64,000 bases of DNA from Escherichia coli 042 (lineage in GTDB: Bacteria; Pseudomonadota; Gammaproteobacteria; Enterobacterales; Enterobacteriaceae): the NCBI RefSeq assembly GCF_000027125.1, contig NC_017626.1. The stretch is one strand, 5' to 3'. This document shows, one piece after another, positions 42,147-51,349 of the stretch (positions within the stretch are counted from its first letter, which is position 1; each line of letters opens with the position of its first letter). A program made the translations under genes and the position numbers. Under the pieces are notes generated by a model, which did not search any database, was not told the DNA's origin, and saw only the letters and a program-made list of their open reading frames with translations.

Positions 42147-44534
42147 TTATCCAATACGTGCTCGTGCGCGTTCCTGTTCACGGATCTGCGCCTGAATTTG
42201 TGTATAAAGCTGCGCCTGTTCATTATCGCGATCGGTCGCGGTCACGACCAGTGCGTAAGGCTCCTGCTCGCTGCTGAATGCTTCGCCCCAGTCTCTGTCC
42301 TGACGGGTAACAACAATAAACCATTTTTCATCCGGGTTACGCTGGCGAAAAGTCCAAATCGACGACTGTACCGTCCCGCGTTCCCGCTGTTGGGCTGATA
42401 CAACACGGTTAGTCTGGGCATCATCGGAGCGGGTTTCCGTCTCACTCTGCGTCTGGTGATTAAAACTGGCCTGCACTTCATCCAGCGAGCGGCCCTTAAC
42501 CAGCCGGAAACCGATCCGTGTGGCAGTATAATCCAGCCGGGTGGTACGCACGGCGGGTGAATATGCCAGCGTAACGCGGACTTCACGGGTTGCACGCTGC
42601 GATCGTAAAAAAGAAGCCGGGAAGGGCAGTTCAAAAAATTGGTGCGCGTTATTTTCTATCTGCTCTTCACATCGCATGACCACCACATTTTCAGAAGAAC
42701 GATATAACGCATCTTCATCAATGATGCCGTAGCCTGTCACGTCGCGCTCAATCTCCCGGTTTCTCGTTGCAGGCGCATTTCTATAGCTTTCTCTCATGGC
42801 CTGCGGAAAAGCCTGCGTCATCTCCTGAGAAACAGAAGCATGATTGACCAGCATTGCCCGCAGCATATTGGCAGACATTTCCGGGTATTCATTTAGCAGT
42901 CGACCCGCCAGATGTGTGATATACGGCGCGGCAAAGCTGGTGCCGCTGAGTTCTTTAAACAGCGTATTACCCTGAAACTGGTGATGGCAGCTTAATACGC
43001 CCAGACCGCGCATATGTGCCTGCCATTGCCCTTGCCGAACGTTGGAAGCGACATTGCCACCGTGCGCTACAACGTCAGGTTTAAACGCGCCTTTTACCGA
43101 CGGGCCGTGTCGGGTAAAAGGCGACGGTTGGTTTTCCGTTGCCGGGCTGAGATGCTGAATATCGCCAGGCCTACGCTGCGCATCCAACGTTGCGTTATGT
43201 CTGGCGACGCTGCCCACTGTCAGTACGTTCAGCGCCGGAGCCGGATCGATGATTACGCTGTCCTCATGCAACAGGTAGTCAGGATATTCATCCCGCCAGC
43301 TATTTTGCGGCACCGGAGGATCGTCGCTGCCTGCGAAATTCCCCGCAGAGACGACAAACAGTACATTATATTGCCGCGCCAGCGTATCTAACAGATACGC
43401 CATACCGCGAATATGTTTGCCGTCATAGGGCGCATTAGCATTCCCCAGCGACAGATTGAAAATGCGGCAACCGAGATCGGTAAAATACGCGACGGCGGCT
43501 GTTAGTGTGCTTTCAATCGTTTCGGCATTGAATTCAGCCCGCTCGTTCAGTACTTTCCCGTTATACAGCCATAGCTGCGGCTGCCAGAAATTGCTCTGGT
43601 TACAGGCTTCAACGTCGCCATACAGAGCAATACTCGCTACGGCGGTGCCATGCCCCTCTTGATCAAACGCATCCTGATTGGGAATAAAGCTGGCGCTTTC
43701 AGCAATGGCGGCACTTAACAGAGGGTGATTGGTGTTGATGCCGCTATCCAGAATACAGACTCTGGCCGCATTTACCGCAGGCGAAATCAGATGCTCTGGA
43801 AGTGTATTGATGTCCCGGTTAATTTGTTGATAGCTAATGCCGCTGGACGGTGGCAAATCAACCAACCTGACGTCCCGATGCGCTAACAGGTATTCTGCTT
43901 GCGCGAGCGAAACCTCTATCCGGTACATCAACAGGCTGTCCAGATTGACTTTATCCCGCCAGAGAATCCCCTGCTCTCTGAGCCAATTTTCAAAACGGGT
44001 ATACAGGTCGATACGTCTGGGGTGATGCGCCACATCGACTGGCCAGAGCTCCACATCCAGATTAAAGCGTTCCGCTACAGGAAAACCATAGCGCCGGAGT
44101 GCCCAGCTTTTACGATCTTCCGCCGACCAGCCGTCAATGCCGTCAAGCGCTTCGAGAATATTCCTGTAGGTTAGGTCCGTACGGGGAAGCCCCAGTTGCG
44201 CCAGATGGGTTTCGAAGGTTGTCAGACCCTGCTCATTAGTGAAAACGATACAGACCTGTTTACCTTCCTGACTGATGAACTCCACGCCGTGATGTATCAA
44301 TGCTGAAAAATTCATTGTGCCGCTGTAGTTCAGCTTGAGGATATAGCGCCCGTCATCGGCGCTGCCGGGTACTTGTGCCAGCGTTGGGCGCAAGGTATGG
44401 AGTTGCGTCAACAGCATTTGCCCGTGCTGGCGTAAATCGCCCCTGCGAATACGGGGCATATTGACTCTGCGGGTCCGTCGGTCGTTTTGAAGTGGTGCTT
44501 TGGTAATCGTTAGATGCTGATAATTCGCCGTCAT
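42147..44534 (-). CDS. S8-family subtilisin-like serine peptidase (IetS-like)
   Basis: 795-aa product with catalytic-triad motifs in D-H-S order (CILDSGINTNHP, EGHGTAVASIA, SGTSFAAPYITH); 9-nt gap to the upstream AAA ATPase gene. Confidence 0.85.
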   Translation of the reverse strand: MTANYQHLTITKAPLQNDRRTRRVNMPRIRRGDLRQHGQMLLTQLHTLRPTLAQVPGSADDGRYILKLNYSGTMNFSALIHHGVEFISQEGKQVCIVFTNEQGLTTFETHLAQLGLPRTDLTYRNILEALDGIDGWSAEDRKSWALRRYGFPVAERFNLDVELWPVDVAHHPRRIDLYTRFENWLREQGILWRDKVNLDSLLMYRIEVSLAQAEYLLAHRDVRLVDLPPSSGISYQQINRDINTLPEHLISPAVNAARVCILDSGINTNHPLLSAAIAESASFIPNQDAFDQEGHGTAVASIALYGDVEACNQSNFWQPQLWLYNGKVLNERAEFNAETIESTLTAAVAYFTDLGCRIFNLSLGNANAPYDGKHIRGMAYLLDTLARQYNVLFVVSAGNFAGSDDPPVPQNSWRDEYPDYLLHEDSVIIDPAPALNVLTVGSVARHNATLDAQRRPGDIQHLSPATENQPSPFTRHGPSVKGAFKPDVVAHGGNVASNVRQGQWQAHMRGLGVLSCHHQFQGNTLFKELSGTSFAAPYITHLAGRLLNEYPEMSANMLRAMLVNHASVSQEMTQAFPQAMRESYRNAPATRNREIERDVTGYGIIDEDALYRSSENVVVMRCEEQIENNAHQFFELPFPASFLRSQRATREVRVTLAYSPAVRTTRLDYTATRIGFRLVKGRSLDEVQASFNHQTQSETETRSDDAQTNRVVSAQQRERGTVQSSIWTFRQRNPDEKWFIVVTRQDRDWGEAFSSEQEPYALVVTATDRDNEQAQLYTQIQAQIREQERARARIG

Positions 44535-44543
44535 GGCAGTCCC

Positions 44544-45524
44544 TTATCGGTGGGTTCTGGCGTTTTCTCGCTGAGTTGCGTTTTTTAAATCTTTTAGCGT
44601 CAGGAATTCCTGATGACGCAGGATCATATGCTTGGTTGCCCGACGGACAATGCGCTCAATATCTGCACCGCTTTTCCCGAGCAGCAGGGATAATAGCTCG
44701 CTATCGTCCAGCTCAAACTGACGGCGGGTGCCGCGTAATTTTAACGCCAACAGCTCACGTAACTGCGCCTGATCCGGCAACGGAAATTCAATCACTTCAT
44801 CAAATCGACGCCAGATGGCGCTGTCCAGAATGTGTTCATGGTTAGTGGCCGCCAGAATCAGGCTTTTACCCTGATAAGCATCCATCATTTGTAAAACGGC
44901 ATTGACGACCCGGCGTAATTCACCGTGTTCGCCGCTGTCGCCACGCTCTTTTCCTATGGCATCAAACTCATCGAACAACACCACCATTGGGTGCTCTGCA
45001 ATAAAATCGAAAATTTTACGCAGATTGGCGGCGGTTTCTCCCAAAAACGAAGACACCAGTACGTCGAGGCGGACAATTGCCAGCGGCATGTCCAGTTCAA
45101 AAGCGATAACCTCTGCTGTCAGCGTTTTACCGCAGCCCGGCGGTCCGAAAAACATGATCTTACTGGCTGCTTTCATCCCGTAGCTATGCAATACATCGCT
45201 ACGCCGGTGCTCTTCAAGGAGTTCATCAATCACTGTAGCGCTGGTCGCCGGGAGGATCATTTCATCAAGGCTGCGCTGTGGCTGCCGGAGATCCAGCAAC
45301 GGCAGGCCCCTTTCTTTATCTATCGGTGCTTGAGGAAGCGCAGGCGAGCGCGAAGCCTGAACAAGACGATCGCCGTAAAGAATATGCTCCAGATCGTTAG
45401 CCAGAAGGTGGTGCTGTTTCTGACGTTCCTCATCAATAATGGCTTCCGAAACACGACGGAAAGTAGCGGTATCACCCGTTGCGCCCGCTTTTATTAGTTG
45501 CCTTAATATCTTACCGTTAGCCAT
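44544..45524 (-). CDS. AAA-family ATPase (IetA-like)
   Basis: Walker A GPPGCGKT and Walker B VVLFDEFDA. ATG at 45524 has an AGGAG RBS; the ORF track extends to GTG 45548. Confidence 0.85.
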   Translation of the reverse strand: MANGKILRQLIKAGATGDTATFRRVSEAIIDEERQKQHHLLANDLEHILYGDRLVQASRSPALPQAPIDKERGLPLLDLRQPQRSLDEMILPATSATVIDELLEEHRRSDVLHSYGMKAASKIMFFGPPGCGKTLTAEVIAFELDMPLAIVRLDVLVSSFLGETAANLRKIFDFIAEHPMVVLFDEFDAIGKERGDSGEHGELRRVVNAVLQMMDAYQGKSLILAATNHEHILDSAIWRRFDEVIEFPLPDQAQLRELLALKLRGTRRQFELDDSELLSLLLGKSGADIERIVRRATKHMILRHQEFLTLKDLKNATQRENARTHR

Positions 45525-45549
45525 TATTGACTCCTGAAACCACAGCACT

Positions 45550-48416
45550 TCATGCGGAAGGTGAACTCAACGTCCAGCTCACCGCGAATAATTGACGGGA
45601 CGTTATTTCCGTCGCCAGCTTTTGCTCGACCTCTTCCAGCAGACGGTCCTCTTCCTGCTCGATTTTTTTCTTTTCATCATGATACTGCAACATGATGCTA
45701 TCCCGCTCGCGTTCCAGCACCTTTAATGCGCGCTTGGCTTCCATTTTCTCTTTTAGAGAAGGAAGCTGACGGGCGGCTTTACGCGCCTCTTTAATTTCTG
45801 CATCTAACTGTTTGATACGTAAGTCCAGCGCGATACGTCGATCTTCTGACCAGCGTTCAAGTTTTTCTACTTCTTCATTGTAATAAAGTTCGTTATCGCG
45901 TTCGACCTGTTGGATAAAAGAATGCCGTAAAACCTCACATTGTGTTGTTAACGCAGGCAGCAAAGGCTGTTCTTCGACAGATGTTATCTCTGATAATGGC
46001 AGGCGAAGCAGACGGGATACGGTTTCCTCTGCCAGCACTTCGCCATTTTCTGTAACAGCGACGGTCAATAGTTTCTCTCGCTGTTGCTCCTGATTTCCGA
46101 TGCTGACTTTTGCCAGCAACAGCTGTCCCGATTTCCCGCAGAACAGTTTAACATCGGCCAGTTGTCCGCTTCTGGGTTGGTAGATGAAATGGAGCTTCTG
46201 GCAAACTGGGGATGTGGAAAGGCTTGCCCCTTCATGCAGGGCAGCATCAATCAGTTGCTTCCCATATCCCTGGCTGGGCCGGAAGAATTCGGCATCTTTT
46301 TCATCCGCAATGGGCCAGTTGACGTCAAAATACTTTCCTCTGGAACGAAAACCCGTCTCAGAACGTTGAAAATCGCTCTCGTCGCTCAGAAACATTTCCG
46401 CCAGCAGCAACAGATTTTCCTGGTAATCGTTTAACTGCGCGAGGGTGGTTGTACGTCGGGTTTTCAGATTGCGGACCACATCAACGTCAAAATGCTCGAA
46501 TAATGAACGCCGGGTTTCATTCTCCCGATTTTCCAGTTGATCTTTGAGTTCATCCTGCAGCTGATTAAATTCCTGTTCAATTTGTTCATCGGAGCGGCAG
46601 TGCTGGTATATCTCATGAATACGTCGTTCAATATCAACACCTGATTCGATCGACCCCAGAATGTCATCGGATGCGCCAAACACCCCTTCAAAAAGCTGGA
46701 ACTTCTGGCTCAATAATTCAAACACGCGCTGATCGGCACGGTTGCCTTTATTAATAAAATTAACCACCACGACATCGTGTTTTTGTCCATAGCGGTGAAC
46801 ACGCCCGATACGTTGCTCCACGCGCTGCGGATTCCACGGTAAATCATAATTGATTAACAGCGAACAAAACTGGAGGTTGATACCTTCTGCGCCCGCTTCA
46901 GTACAAATCATCAGGGTGCCTTCGTCCCTGAATTTTTCAACCAGCGCTGCCTTCATATCCGCCGTACTCGAACCGGAAACCCGGCCAGAGTTCTGATGTT
47001 TCTCCAGCCAGTCGCTGTAAATCTTCTTCGACACCGCATCGCTATTGCTGCCATTGAGCAGAACCACTTCTCCCTCGTAGCCACTTTCTGACAACAGTTG
47101 CGCCAGCCAGGTCTGGGTGCGTACGGACTCGGTAAAAATGACCGCCTTACGTAATCCGCCCAGTTCAGCCGTAAAGGTAAAGGCCCGATCGAGAACGCGT
47201 AACAGTGCTTCGGCCTTGGCGTTTTTGGTAATCGATGCCGCTAAAGTCTTATAATTTTTTAACTGGTCAATTTCGGCCTGTAGCGCCTGAGGATCGATGG
47301 TATCTTCGTCATCAATGCCTTCTTCATCGCTGTAATCGTCGTAATTTTCATAATCCGTCAGCGCATCCAGCACCGGCATTTTACTTTCAAGACGGTGGAT
47401 CATCGTTTCCAGCGTTCCCTGGATCGCTGTAGACGATGAGGCCAGAATTTTACGAATGACTAACGTTACTAGGTGACGCGCGCCGCTTTTGATCGCCAGT
47501 AGATCGTCCCGCTGCAAATAAGAGGAAACCTGTTTATAGAGCACTTCTTCGTCTTCCGTCGGACGAAAGTCTTCGGTTATTGAATGGCGTCGGGTAAAAC
47601 TGATCCCGCCTTCCTGCTGAACCTGTCGACGAAGCGTTCGATTACAGATTTTATTCAGACGAACCCTTAATAATGCCAGTTCTGCATCGTCAATATTCTG
47701 TCGGGAATAACGGGCCTTGAACGAAGCAAGGTCGCCGAAAAAATGAGGATCAATCACGGAAATCAGGCCGTAAAGCTCAAGAATACTGTTTTGTAGCGGC
47801 GTGGCGGAAAGCAGTATTTTTTTTCTGCCGGACAGTGCGCCACTGAGTTTTTTGGCTGTTTTAGCGCCATCGTTCTTGTAGATATTACGCAGTTTATGCG
47901 CCTCATCCATGACGACCAGATCCCACGGGATTCGTGCCAGCTCGTGCTCTTTACGGGCAGCGAATTCGTATGAACAAATGCAGATCGCCGCTTTCCCGGT
48001 TGCATTTTCAATATCAAAGGGATTATCGCTCCCCTCTTTAACCATTTGATTGAAGATCTTCGCTTCAATAATTTGTGAAGGCAGCGAAAATTTCTCTTCC
48101 AGCTCCTGGCTCCACTGCTTGCGTAGCGTTGCGGGTGCAATCAGCAACAGTTTTCGGCGGCGTTCAGCCCATTTTGCGCCAAAATCAGGCTGGCCTCAAT
48201 AGTTTTCCCCAGTCCCACTTCATCGGCCAGGATCACGCCATTCGACAGGGGAGATGCCAGCGCAAACATCGCAGCCTCTACCTGATGAGGATTCATATCA
48301 ACCCGTGCGCTGGCAATAGTTTGCGTCAGCGAGTCCTCGGCTTTGCCGCTTAACGTCAACCAGTGGGCCAGATAACTACGTTGGTGATCTGAATACATTT
48401 TCATACCTTTGTGCAA
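45550..48416 (-). pseudogene. SNF2-family helicase-like protein with C-terminal coiled coil, split by a frameshift at a T4/A4 tract
   Basis: N-terminal 91-aa ORF carries motif I (ADEVGLGKTIEAS); the 865-aa ORF carries DEAH (VVMDEAHKLRN) and helicase C motifs (QRIGRVHRYGQ). The downstream frame reads KWAERRRKLLLIAPATL upstream of its ORF-track start, so the frames join at about 48160-48166. Confidence 0.78.
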
Positions 48417-48698
48417 AGAGGGGGAGGGGAGCGCGACCGTATTTTACTGATATATGAACCGGGTTGCTAATCTGGAAGATGGCTCGCATTACATCCCCTT
48501 GTCGTTCACCGGGCTTCGCGGTCTCTTTTCCTCGCGTCTGCAAAATCAGGCGCCGGGCTTGACCTCCTGAACACTCCTTAGTGACGACACAATGGCGCGC
48601 TCGCGCCTTTTTTGTGCCGGTGCTCGGCTACACCTCAATGGCGGACCGGGCGGGGGCGTCGCAAGGCGCGCTGGATGGACTGTTCTGAGGAGGCAGGA

Positions 48699-49402
48699 AT
48701 GAGACGATTACCGCTGATGGTGGGCGTGATAGTGGGCGTAATGCTGGCTGTCGGCTGCCATGACCGTAGGGCTGGTGTGAGGACGCTGCTGGGCGATGGC
48801 GTGGAGCAATGGGGGCAGAAGTTGCCTTACGACCACTGGGAATTCAATTTTTTTACCCGAAAAATCTGCCGGCACTGGTGACAATGGTGTATCTGGAGGA
48901 CGGGGATATCCGGGAGAGCTTTTTCCGGCGACTGGATCCGACTGAACCCAGTCAGAGCAGTGTGGGAAAATGGAGCCAGCACGTAGGCGGTTTTTTAGCC
49001 AGTTTTAATATTGGCAAGGCGCTGCCTGTCAGGATGACGGTATGCTGGGACTCAGTTATCGATAAAAAGGCGTATGAGACGGAGATCTGGTTCAGCCGGG
49101 ATACGTGGCAGCAGATGCTGACTGCCTATCCTGATACTTATCGTCCGGGAAAAATATATTACCGAAACAAAATGATTATTGGCCTGCCCCCCGGTGGTAA
49201 AGTCAGGGTATGGTTAAAAGACAATCGTAATCCTGTTGTACTCCAGAATCCTGCCCGACAGTTCACCCTGACGGGAGATGATATGCTGATATGCAAAAAT
49301 GTTCCCAACAAGATTGATTTCAGTTACATCAAGGCTAACGGTTACGATCCATTTATCCGCGATTTTATCAAGGAAAAGCCCTATCCGTATGGTCACTGGT
49401 AG
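48699..49402 (+). pseudogene. Putative lipoprotein, frameshifted at a T7 tract
   Basis: ATG 48699 with a GAGGAGG RBS; signal peptide and lipobox (MRRLPLMVGVIVGVMLAVGC). The frame terminates shortly after a T7 run (48848-48854) and continues in another frame to 49402 (197-aa ORF). Confidence 0.5.
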
Positions 49403-49424
49403 GGCGCAACGATCAGCAAAATTA

Positions 49425-49785
49425 AAATGATCTTCTTGAGATCCTTTTAAGCTGCGCGTAATCTTCGGCTTGTAAACGGAAAAAGCCGCCTTGCGGCGGC
49501 TTTTTCCGTCCGATTAGAAGTCTTCGACCTCTTCTAATCGACTGTGGTAACTGGCTTGATGGAGCACAGATACCAAATGCTGTCCTTCCAGTGTAGCCGC
49601 TATAAGGCTTCAACTTCAAGAGTTCTGCGTATCTAAATCCACTATCCAGTTACCAATGGCTGCTGCCAGTGGCGTTAAGTCGTGTCTTACCGGGTTGGAC
49701 TCAAGACGATAGTTACCGGATAAGGCGCAGCGGTCGGGCTGAACGGGGGGGCGTGCACACAGCCCAGCCTAGAGGACTCGACTTA
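49425..49785 (+). other. ColE1/pMB1-type plasmid replication origin remnant (RNA II 5' region with antisense RNA I region), truncated
   Basis: Strong similarity to the ColE1-family ori as I recall it (GATCTTCTTGAGATCC, GTAACTGGCTT, CAGATACCAAAT, CTGCTGCCAGTGGCG, TAAGTCGTGTCTTACCGGGTTGGACTCAAGACGATAGTTACCGGATAAGGCGCAGCGGTCGGGCTGAACGGGGGG), with divergent stem-loop sequences. Homology ends near 49785, before the origin proper. Confidence 0.75.
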
Positions 49786-49867
49786 TTTAATTGTGTAAAC
49801 AGGGCCTCTCCGCGAAAGACCCTTATGCATCACCTGACGTTAAAAGTCACTACACCCAAGATGACGT

Positions 49868-50247
49868 TCAATGGCACCATGTGATTTCAATGTAAGCCCG
49901 GGCCGTCTGTTCCAGTACACCAGGCTCAGCGTTGTATGTGTTAGCTGCATCAAATACCAACGTCAGCACTTCAGGATACACAACCAGATATGTAATGGAG
50001 TTATCTTCATCCAATACTTTTCCCCACGCCTGCTCAATCAGATTTCTGAGAACCACCACCTCACGACTCTTACACCAGACATCGTTATTAAGTAGCAGCA
50101 CCATAAGATAAGGAGTGGTATCGTTAGCCACAGCCTCCCTGCTCCAGAGATAATATAAAGGGGGGGCTCAACAGATTGATCTTTACGTCGCTTACACTGC
50201 AAATATTCAGAAATGAGTCTATGCATTTCACCAGTAAAATCAGCCAT
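49868..50247 (-). pseudogene. Hypothetical protein split across two frames at a G7 tract
   Basis: 69-aa ORF (50038-50247) and 87-aa ORF (49868-50131) overlap in different frames. One extra G in the G7 run at 50159-50165 would fuse them into about 126 aa. Confidence 0.3.
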
Positions 50248-50271
50248 CAGAGAGGGGGTAATGACTCCAAC

Positions 50272-50649
50272 TTATTGATAGTGTTTTATGTTCAGATAAT
50301 GCCCGATGACTTTGTCATGCAGCTCCACCGATTTTGAGAACGACAGCGACTTCCGTCCCAGCCGTGCCAGGTGCTGCCTCAGATTCAGGTTATGCCGCTC
50401 AATTCGCTGCGTATATCGCTTGCTGATTACGTGCAGCTTTCCCTTCAGGCGGGATTCATACAGCGGCCAGTCATCCGTCATCCATATCACCACGTCAAAG
50501 GGTGACAGCAGGCTCATAAGACGCCCCAGCGTCGCCATAGTGCGTTCACCGAATACGTGCGCAACAACCGTCTTCCGGAGCCTGTCATACGCGTAAAACA
50601 GCCAGCGCTGGCGCGATTTAGCCCCGACATAGCCCCACTGTTCGTCCAT
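50272..50649 (-). CDS. insB: IS1 InsB reading frame (expressed as InsAB' by frameshifting)
   Basis: 125-aa ORF matching the IS1 InsB C-terminal region ([47 protein letters not shown]). Confidence 0.8.
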
Positions 50650-50693
50650 TTCCGCGCAGACGATGACGTCACTGCCCGGCTGTATGCGCGAGG

Positions 50694-50969
50694 TTACCGA
50701 CTGCGGCCTGAGTTTTTTAAGTGACGTAAAATCGTGTTGAGGCCAACGCCCATAATGCGGGCAGTTGCCCGGCAGCCAACGCCATTCATGGCCATATCAA
50801 TGATTTTCTGGTGCGTACCGGGTTGAGAAGCGGTGTAAGTGAACTGCAGTTGCCATGTTTTACGGCAGTGAGAGCAGAGATAGCGCTGATGTCCGGCGGT
50901 GCTTTTGCCGTTACGCACCACCCCGTCAGTAGCTGAACAGGAGGGACAGCTGATAGAAACAGAAGCCAC
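50694..50969 (-). CDS. insA: IS1 InsA
   Basis: 91-aa product [43 protein letters not shown] matches IS1 InsA. Confidence 0.9.
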
Positions 50970-51349
50970 TGGAGCACCTCAAAAACACCATCATACACTA
51001 AATCAGTAAGTTGGCAGCATCACCTGTTCCCAAAATTTTATTTATCTTCATCACTTACAGAGAATGCTCAACATTTGCTAGTCTTTTCCTGTCCTGGTAT
51101 CCAAAGTCTCCTCCCAAATATCCTGGATACTAGCTTAGACAAAATGAGATTATATTTATGGTAAATTATATCATAACAGCTTTTGTTAAGGATGCTGTGT
51201 AAGATAAAATATATGGGTTAGAGGCAGATTCTTTTGCAATCAGGAAGAAGATAATCACTGATGTTATCGGATATGTAGCAGTATTCGTTATAGCTATTTA
51301 GAGAAATTTGTGCCACAATTTATTATAGAGTTTAAAGAAAAATATATTG

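Follow-up and report, generated by a model that had tools for sequence, protein, structure and literature searches.

In the satellite phage P4 and in phage P1, a partner RNA is excised from read-through transcripts and pairs with sites on both sides of itself; upon pairing, transcription is terminated and translation of the downstream replication or anti-repressor gene is blocked. The immunity factor of P4 and P1 is said to be an RNA, in work attributed to Forti, Deho and Ghisotti and to Citron and Schuster. IsrK corresponds to the seqA region of P4 and C4 to its CI RNA, and the same design is found in P1, P7, and N15 (PMC3632133; PMC4825925). Terminator read-through is part of the normal mechanism of the family (PMC4825925). 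An intact cassette has a constitutive promoter, with transcription starting at the first base of an ~80-nt leader that carries its own intrinsic terminator (named IsrK in Salmonella Gifsy-1, seqA region in P4, and a1/b1 in P1), and read-through continues into the C4/CI RNA, which is then processed out. The loops a' and b' of C4/CI base-pair with sites in the leader and with a further copy of these sites (b2/a2), which covers the ribosome-binding site of the gene that comes first downstream, and the pairing shuts off a replication or anti-repressor operon. In the P4 genome, the Rfam isrK model matches 8692–8615 (60.8 bits), immediately downstream of a TATAGT -10-like box at the place given for P_LE in the literature, and the C4 model matches 8507–8420 (74.9 bits), inside the old 'cI' annotation.

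We investigated a spacer in a 64,000-nt stretch of the Escherichia coli 042 chromosome (the window), in which the SNF2 gene starts at 48398 on the minus strand and the ATG of a lipoprotein gene lies at 48699, so that the actual spacer is 48399–48698 (300 bp). A preliminary description, made from the sequence alone, had pointed to a spacer richer in GC than the SNF2 gene and to a terminator without a plus-strand gene upstream, SNF2 diverging on the minus strand. The gene coordinates agree with the latter, and the GC content of 48417–48698, at 59.6%, exceeds that of both the SNF2 gene (48.9%) and the whole window (46.1%). The terminator-like hairpin itself is real, although it had been placed at about 48597–48617, some 3 nt too far to the right: the stem-loop GGCGC-GCTC-GCGCC occupies 48594–48607 on the plus strand and is followed directly by T6 at 48608–48613, the GC-rich stem-loop and U-tract of a Rho-independent terminator. 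Its folding energy is -8.4 kcal/mol, compared with -7.1 ± 1.2 kcal/mol for 80 unique family terminators. As a bare pattern it is no better than chance, with three terminator-like sites per 2 kb against 2.0 ± 1.3 in shuffled sequence; because hairpins followed by T-runs are this common, the case depends on the element that the hairpin closes. That element and its surroundings comprise the following features.

48499–48527, plus strand: remnant of the cassette promoter (P_LE-type), with -35 TTGTCG at 48499–48504, a 17-nt spacer, and TCTCTT at the -10 place (48522–48527)
48534–48613, plus strand: IsrK/seqA-type leader RNA gene, full length (Rfam RF01394 positions 1–77 of 77)
48534–48553, plus strand: hairpin 1 of the leader, GCGUCUG, CAAAAU loop, CAGGCGC; 99% of cells paired across 53 diverse members
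48554–48569, plus strand: hairpin 2 with the b1-type target site GGGCUUGACCU (48555–48565), complementary to AAGGUCAACCCC in the C4 of contig L252 and of the Pluralibacter MAG L258
48576–48584, plus strand: linker with the a1-type target site CCUUAGUGA; the loop of C4 hairpin 2 in L252 and L258, UCACUAAGG, is its exact complement
48594–48613, plus strand: intrinsic terminator of the IsrK-like RNA (the hairpin described earlier), with a 5-bp GC stem, a GCUC loop, and U6; the stem base covaries
48634–48676, plus strand: 3'-truncated C4/CI antisense RNA, with the 5' strand of the closing stem and the first hairpin only
48668–48674, no strand: recombination joint GCGCTGG (7 nt), common to the C4 remnant and the plasmid-derived block, where the homology ends overlap
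48668–48688, plus strand: last 21 nt of a DUF2235 (Tle1-like) gene including its TGA stop (48686–48688), aligning to the end of a DUF2235 CDS (L246, 3001–3021)
48699–49402, plus strand: DUF2931 (Tli-like) lipoprotein gene (Pfam PF11153), frameshifted, with T7 at 48848–48854 versus T8 in the plasmid copy

The preliminary description had proposed an Rfam scan and a comparative alignment as checks. The Rfam scan returned a full-length isrK (RF01394) match at 48534–48613 on the plus strand, with 56.8 bits against a gathering score of 50 (E = 1.6e-9 for the 64-kb window, both strands, and all 4227 Rfam families), and the closest relatives, in roughly 900 E. coli genomes, are ~79–81% identical. The c4-a1b1 model (RF03163) matched 48521–48573 at 37.5 bits, under its gathering score of 46.7; in comparison, P4 reached 44.1 bits, also sub-threshold, and the intact cognate cassette of L252 47.8 bits. 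The minimum free energy fold of the 80-mer is the family structure (hairpin 1, hairpin 2, linker, and terminator), with a z-score of only -1.3. In an alignment of 53 diverse leaders including those of the window and P4, 90.7% of cells were paired, a value reached by none of 500 shuffles, and seven pairs showed double changes. Three pairs of hairpin 1 carry such compensatory changes in 22–33 sequences, at positions left free by the search pattern. The two 5' hairpins, the first with a GCAAAAUC loop in the family, and the 3' terminator are thus supported by covariation. The hairpin is almost certainly the conserved terminator of an IsrK/seqA-type leader; homology supports the earlier suggestion of a small-RNA 3' end, and a curated RNA family, left unannotated at this place in RefSeq, now accounts for the 'terminator without a gene'. 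One candidate role, that the CCUCCU of hairpin 2 masks the Shine-Dalgarno sequence of the lipoprotein gene, was dropped, since the motif is common to relatives with unrelated downstream genes.

The promoter is less well preserved. The aligned promoters are TTGCCG-17-TATCTT in the relatives from thrW islands and TTGTCT-17-TATTCT in L252. T(-7) is invariant among 107 unique family members and A(-11) occurs in 105; in the remaining two, a usable hexamer is displaced by one base. In the window, -11 is a C and 48517–48533 contains no A at all, so that the leader is not preceded by the sigma-70 promoter of its own that IsrK has immediately upstream. A consensus scan found no other plus-strand promoter upstream of the leader, although one may lie further away. 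These features suggest that the promoter has decayed and that the element is most likely inert or barely transcribed; any residual transcription would mostly end at 48613, yielding an orphan RNA of ~80 nt.

The partner RNA breaks off. When the stretch was cut at 48676, the Rfam C4 model (RF01695) matched positions 1–43 of 87 with 27.4 bits (E = 5e-4, flagged as 3'-truncated), below the gathering score of 45; in the uncut context there was no Rfam match to C4 at E ≤ 10. An nhmmer C4 profile likewise matched positions 1–39 of 81 in the window. With the 3' strand absent, the closing stem does not form, and no functional full-length C4 fold was found across 48634–48720. The window thus has neither the antisense loops nor the 3' strand of the closing stem, and both the b2/a2 sites and the gene under control are missing: the leader is not followed by a complete C4/CI on the same strand, and plasmid-derived sequence stands after 48676 in place of a second copy of the target sites over a downstream ribosome-binding site. 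This truncation, with the controlled operon gone, bears out another proposal of the preliminary description, that the hairpin is a relic of a lost gene.

The alignment with the thrW-type cassettes and with that of L252 stops at about 48674–48676, and homology to plasmid pSTEC2018_166-a begins at 48668; from there to about 49774 the window is 89% identical to that plasmid. The block opens with the 3' end of the DUF2235 gene, which carries the Shine-Dalgarno sequence of the next gene, DUF2931. Because DUF2931 has T7 instead of T8, its reading frame is split, and RefSeq annotates it as CDSs of 60 and 172 aa, with the same split in E. coli 55989. DUF2931, a gene of the immunity type, is orphaned here, as only the last 21 nt of its DUF2235 partner remain; with its broken frame it is a pseudogene. 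Because it came with foreign DNA, its place behind the leader is accidental. Further into the block, Rfam RNAI (RF00106) matches 49476–49581 on the minus strand (59.9 bits versus a gathering score of 47); because the ColE1-type region came in with the plasmid-derived block, this match is a fragment of a ColE1-type replicon and not a chromosomal small RNA.

To place the locus among its relatives, the spacer was compared by BLAST with 5,426 complete E. coli genomes, which gave two classes of matches. In 65 genomes the arrangement is the same as in the window at ≥95% identity (in 64 at ≥99%), and in about 900 genomes a 72–81% match covers 48516–48674 only and is annotated as 'ash family protein'. 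The two of these ~900 that were examined, both from thrW islands (L002 and L003), contain isrK at 68 bits followed ~20 nt later by full-length C4 (72 and 71 bits). Against a phage collection, BLAST of the spacer returned only Hafnia phage yong2 and not P4; the relation to P4 appeared with covariance models only. When viral contigs were scanned with a pattern for the core of hairpins 1 and 2, 120 further loci emerged, which with L002, L003, and the window yield 126 IsrK-like elements (108 unique). An iterated nhmmer profile detected full-length C4 in 112 of the 126, starting 85–190 nt after the leader start; the elements without it mostly have divergent C4s or lie at contig ends, and one short profile match is unchecked. 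Wherever the downstream sequence sufficed, a complete C4/CI followed the IsrK-like element, and only the window stops short, at profile position 39 of 81. Carriers of the joint (~65 E. coli genomes and eight metagenome contigs) are ≥99% identical over the compared region, so selection is not readable from their divergence. Among the viral contigs, L114 carries three tandem IsrK-C4 cassettes ~850 bp apart with different a/b specificities (3310–5095, minus strand), and L095 carries two.

Inspection by eye, followed by computation, showed that two sites in the leader are complementary to two unpaired regions of the cognate C4. One site, b1, comprises the loop of hairpin 2 and the 5' side of its stem, and the other, a1, is a 9-nt stretch of the linker. 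The a1 site and the C4 loop co-vary between cassettes (CGUUACAGG/CCUGUAACG in L002, CUUAUCGG/CCGAUAAG in L003, CUAAUAGG/CCUAUUAG in L025, and UUCACAGG/CCUGUGAA in P4), and the b1-type site covaries with the cognate C4 across the family. For 90 unique pairs the mean duplex energy was -35.2 kcal/mol for cognate and -23.2 kcal/mol for non-cognate combinations, and the cognate C4 was the best partner in 63 of the 90 and among the top two in 77. Relatives carry a second copy of the sites (b2/a2) downstream of C4, in which a2 covers the Shine-Dalgarno sequence of the first ORF. From a1 and b1 of the window, the loops of the missing partner were predicted as that complementary to a1 (listed above) and AGGUCAA. 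The leader pattern of the window gave one AT-rich chance match in viral contigs (L244) and none in species-representative genomes, and the predicted C4 loop pattern gave 120 chance matches in viral contigs, none with a C4 profile match. A metagenome scan returned eight contigs identical to the window, one chance match (L256), and one intact cassette, L252, which scores 61.8 bits for isrK and 75.8 bits for C4. Its a1/b1 sites are identical to those of the window at an overall identity of only 79%, its -10 hexamer contains A(-11), and its C4 loops, GUCACUAAGG and the b1 complement AAGGUCAACCCC, are exactly those predicted. The window leader pairs with the L252 C4 at -38.5 kcal/mol, compared with -39.2 kcal/mol for L252's own leader and a mean of -16.6 kcal/mol for the window leader with 90 unrelated C4s. 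The leader sites are thus complementary to the two loops of a C4 found elsewhere, while the C4 in cis is deleted. The two-site (a/b) specificity code read from the family had forecast the loops of the missing partner before that partner turned up. A C4 with the same loops also occurs in the Pluralibacter MAG; in this cassette (L258, 1925–2160) the upstream b1 (UUAGCCU) mismatches the b' loop of its own C4 (AGGUCAA), while a1, a2, and b2 match. In view of this mismatch, a and b sites seem to be reshuffled between cassettes independently of each other.

Compared with IsrK of Salmonella Gifsy-1 (RF01394; PMC4825925), the window element has the full-length match above the gathering score, the hairpin that bears the GCAAAAUC loop, the second hairpin, the variable linker, and the terminator, as well as a length of ~80 nt and a start directly at the promoter position. 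It differs in lacking an intact downstream partner RNA (the STnc1160/orf45 equivalent) and an anti-repressor gene, in its degenerate -10, and in its host element, which is a mosaic pathogenicity island and not a prophage. In the P4 immunity region (P_LE leader with seqA, CI RNA, and seqC), too, matches to these two Rfam models follow each other in this order and at this spacing, and the sites in the linker and in hairpin 2 are complements of both partner-RNA loops. Unlike in P4, C4/CI ends at model position 43 of 87, there is no equivalent of seqC (b2/a2) and no alpha operon, and psu, sid, delta, alpha, and cos are absent from the element; the fragment also points towards the island integrase, whereas the P_LE operon, as inferred from the P4 map, points away from int. 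In P1 and P7 (c4 with a1/b1 targets; RF01695, RF03163; PMC2864571), as here, the target sites lie upstream of the antisense RNA on the same transcript; in the window c4-a1b1 is sub-threshold (37.5 versus 46.7 bits) and no c4 follows. The nearest relatives are the IsrK-C4 cassettes of E. coli thrW islands, which are 79–81% identical over 48516–48674 and have the same left boundary, at the -35; these, however, are intact (isrK 68 bits and C4 72 bits) and differ in specificity, with CGUUACAGG or CUUAUCGG and UUAGCCU where the window has CCUUAGUGA and UUGACCU.

Taken in this setting, the spacer appears to hold a stranded fragment of ~180 bp (48499–48676) of a P4-type antisense-RNA immunity cassette. 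Illegitimate recombination at GCGCTGG (48668–48674) would have cost the cassette the 3' half of C4, its downstream target sites, and the operon under its control, and would have joined the remainder to the plasmid-derived block of DUF2235', DUF2931, and ColE1 ori. Given a -10 without A(-11), a deleted partner RNA, and a pseudogene downstream, inertness or at best very low transcription is the most likely state of the element, and promoter activity and function have presumably both been lost. We therefore consider it probable that the locus is an inert relic of a known P4-type RNA system within a mosaic pheU/pheV pathogenicity island, its presumed silence turning on a single promoter position. 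The leader is structurally intact throughout (hairpins, both target sites, and a terminator of family-average strength), and is consequently compatible with either a recent relic or retention. The element is a degenerate copy of an already known RNA system, and leaves the current understanding of that system unchanged; its value lies chiefly in annotation and in the history of the island.

The intact leader raises the alternative that an orphan IsrK-like RNA continues to be produced and has a role in trans, either as a decoy or sponge for the C4/CI of a satellite or prophage of the same specificity or as an opener of an mRNA, in the manner of Gifsy-1 IsrK. In Salmonella, IsrK does work in trans (PMC4825925), and TraDIS of S. 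Typhi showed IsrK-like elements to be required (PMC3632133); in the window, however, the -10 lacks the A(-11) that is nearly universal in the family, and decay is visible in nearby genes, with a frameshift in DUF2931 and, in this strain, in SNF2 and Mod as well. The leader is complete, its terminator is strong, and its a1/b1 sites and pairing energy match those of L252, yet 0 of 90 sampled viral C4s pair with it like a cognate, and although C4 RNAs with matching loops exist in Enterobacteriaceae (the Pluralibacter MAG), no exact window-type cassette occurred in viral contigs or species-representative genomes, nor, among the matches listed, any second cassette of the closest type in three genomes that carry the relic; strains with the relic are not known to harbour a C4 of the L252 type. 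Action in trans is therefore unlikely. Retention of the orphan leader specifically as an RNA decoy, with its perfect a1/b1 sites soaking up the C4 immunity RNA of a satellite or prophage of this type, be it invading or resident, is very unlikely; if it did occur, the decoy would force such an element from lysogeny or block its establishment, and would be an RNA-level addition to the adjacent defence island.

The preliminary description had also raised the possibility of a leader or attenuator for the lipoprotein gene, with DUF2931 expression set by read-through of the terminator. The element is the sole promoter-like, terminator-bearing plus-strand sequence upstream of DUF2931, and read-through belongs to the normal mechanism of the family (PMC4825925); the juxtaposition, however, was created by the joint at 48668–48674, the plasmid DUF2931 sits behind DUF2235, with which it is normally co-transcribed and whose 3' end contains its Shine-Dalgarno sequence, its frame is broken at 48848–48854 both here and in 55989, and the promoter is damaged. 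The juxtaposition thus holds as an accident of recombination, and a regulatory link to this plasmid-derived, frameshifted gene is highly improbable. Scarcely credible, too, is the reading of the GC-rich stretch as a truncated protein-coding gene of the Ash family (Pfam PF10554), even though PGAP annotates 'ash family protein' at the homologous place in the ~900 E. coli genomes and Pfam Phage_ASH matches those translations at 30.4 and 23.0 bits, because these CDSs overlie the C4 RNA gene (72–75 bits, RF01695), whose closing stem shows compensatory changes between members. In the window the Ash frame ends after 16 codons, and a longer ORF spanning the spacer (48612–48881) has no Pfam match; moreover, RNA and not protein is the established immunity factor in P4 and P1 (PMC3632133). 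Finally, a chance GC hairpin with a T-run and without biological origin would fit the chance frequency of terminator-like patterns in the 2-kb region and the modest fold z-score, but is refuted by the covariance-model E-value, the ~80% identity to hundreds of cassettes, and the position-wise covariation. The relic reading of the locus thus stands as the probable one. As a separate observation on annotation, the 'ash family protein' CDSs of L002 (9122–9280) and L003 (9043–9216) sit on the C4/CI RNA gene, where no ncRNA is annotated; the calls in ~900 E. coli genomes fall on an RNA gene, and the Ash protein family may be largely the translation of a conserved RNA gene.

The wider context is that of an island assembled from several sources. 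Positions 36302–50249 of the window are 99.97% identical to the pheV island of the enteroaggregative strain E. coli 55989, which carries the aai type VI secretion system and pic. In RefSeq, the 55989 copy is annotated with type VI secretion genes, pic, an integrase, IS elements, and defence genes, and with none of the P4 core genes (psu, sid, delta, alpha primase, and cos). In the window the island abuts tRNA-Phe (52845–52965; 52950–56000) near cutA/dsbD/dcuA, which we take to be the pheU position, and the 55989 copy lies at the tRNA-Phe near yqgA/speC (pheV); since the tRNA-Phe neighbours differ, the same island occupies either tRNA-Phe gene in different strains. Within this island the joint marks a recombination scar, by which one can date how pieces of a satellite, a plasmid, and a defence island came together as the pheU/pheV aai-T6SS/pic island.

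PADLOC assigns the divergent operon at 37637–48398 (minus strand) to defence genes, namely a DrmD-like SNF2 helicase (669 bits), IetA/IetS (350 and 1202 bits), and type III RM Mod/Res (967 and 2119 bits). Relative to 55989, single-base deletions frameshift both the SNF2/DrmD-like gene (48172–48175, T4 versus T5) and the type III Mod (~41416), which are either strain pseudogenes or homopolymer sequencing errors. A placement of the upstream defence genes at the published P4 psu-int hotspot was rejected, as that hotspot adjoins cos and not the immunity region. IsrK-C4 cassette homology starts at the promoter -35 in four unrelated contexts (~48496 in the window, ~8980 in both L002 and L003, and ~2795 in L252), and the defence cargo just upstream of this boundary differs, including the DrmD/Iet/type III cluster, type I RM hsdS, and a reverse transcriptase; L252 has, ~1.5 kb further upstream, an AAA ATPase and another ORF whose identity is unconfirmed. 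The -35 boundary looks like a cargo-exchange boundary distinct from the psu-int hotspot. Mobile elements are also present: an IS1 copy at 50249–51015 (InsA and InsB' ORFs, Pfam) occurs in the window and is absent from the 55989 island, and an ALIL pseudoknot (RF01497, 116 bits) at 15920–16035 on the plus strand marks the frameshift element of an IS3-family transposase.
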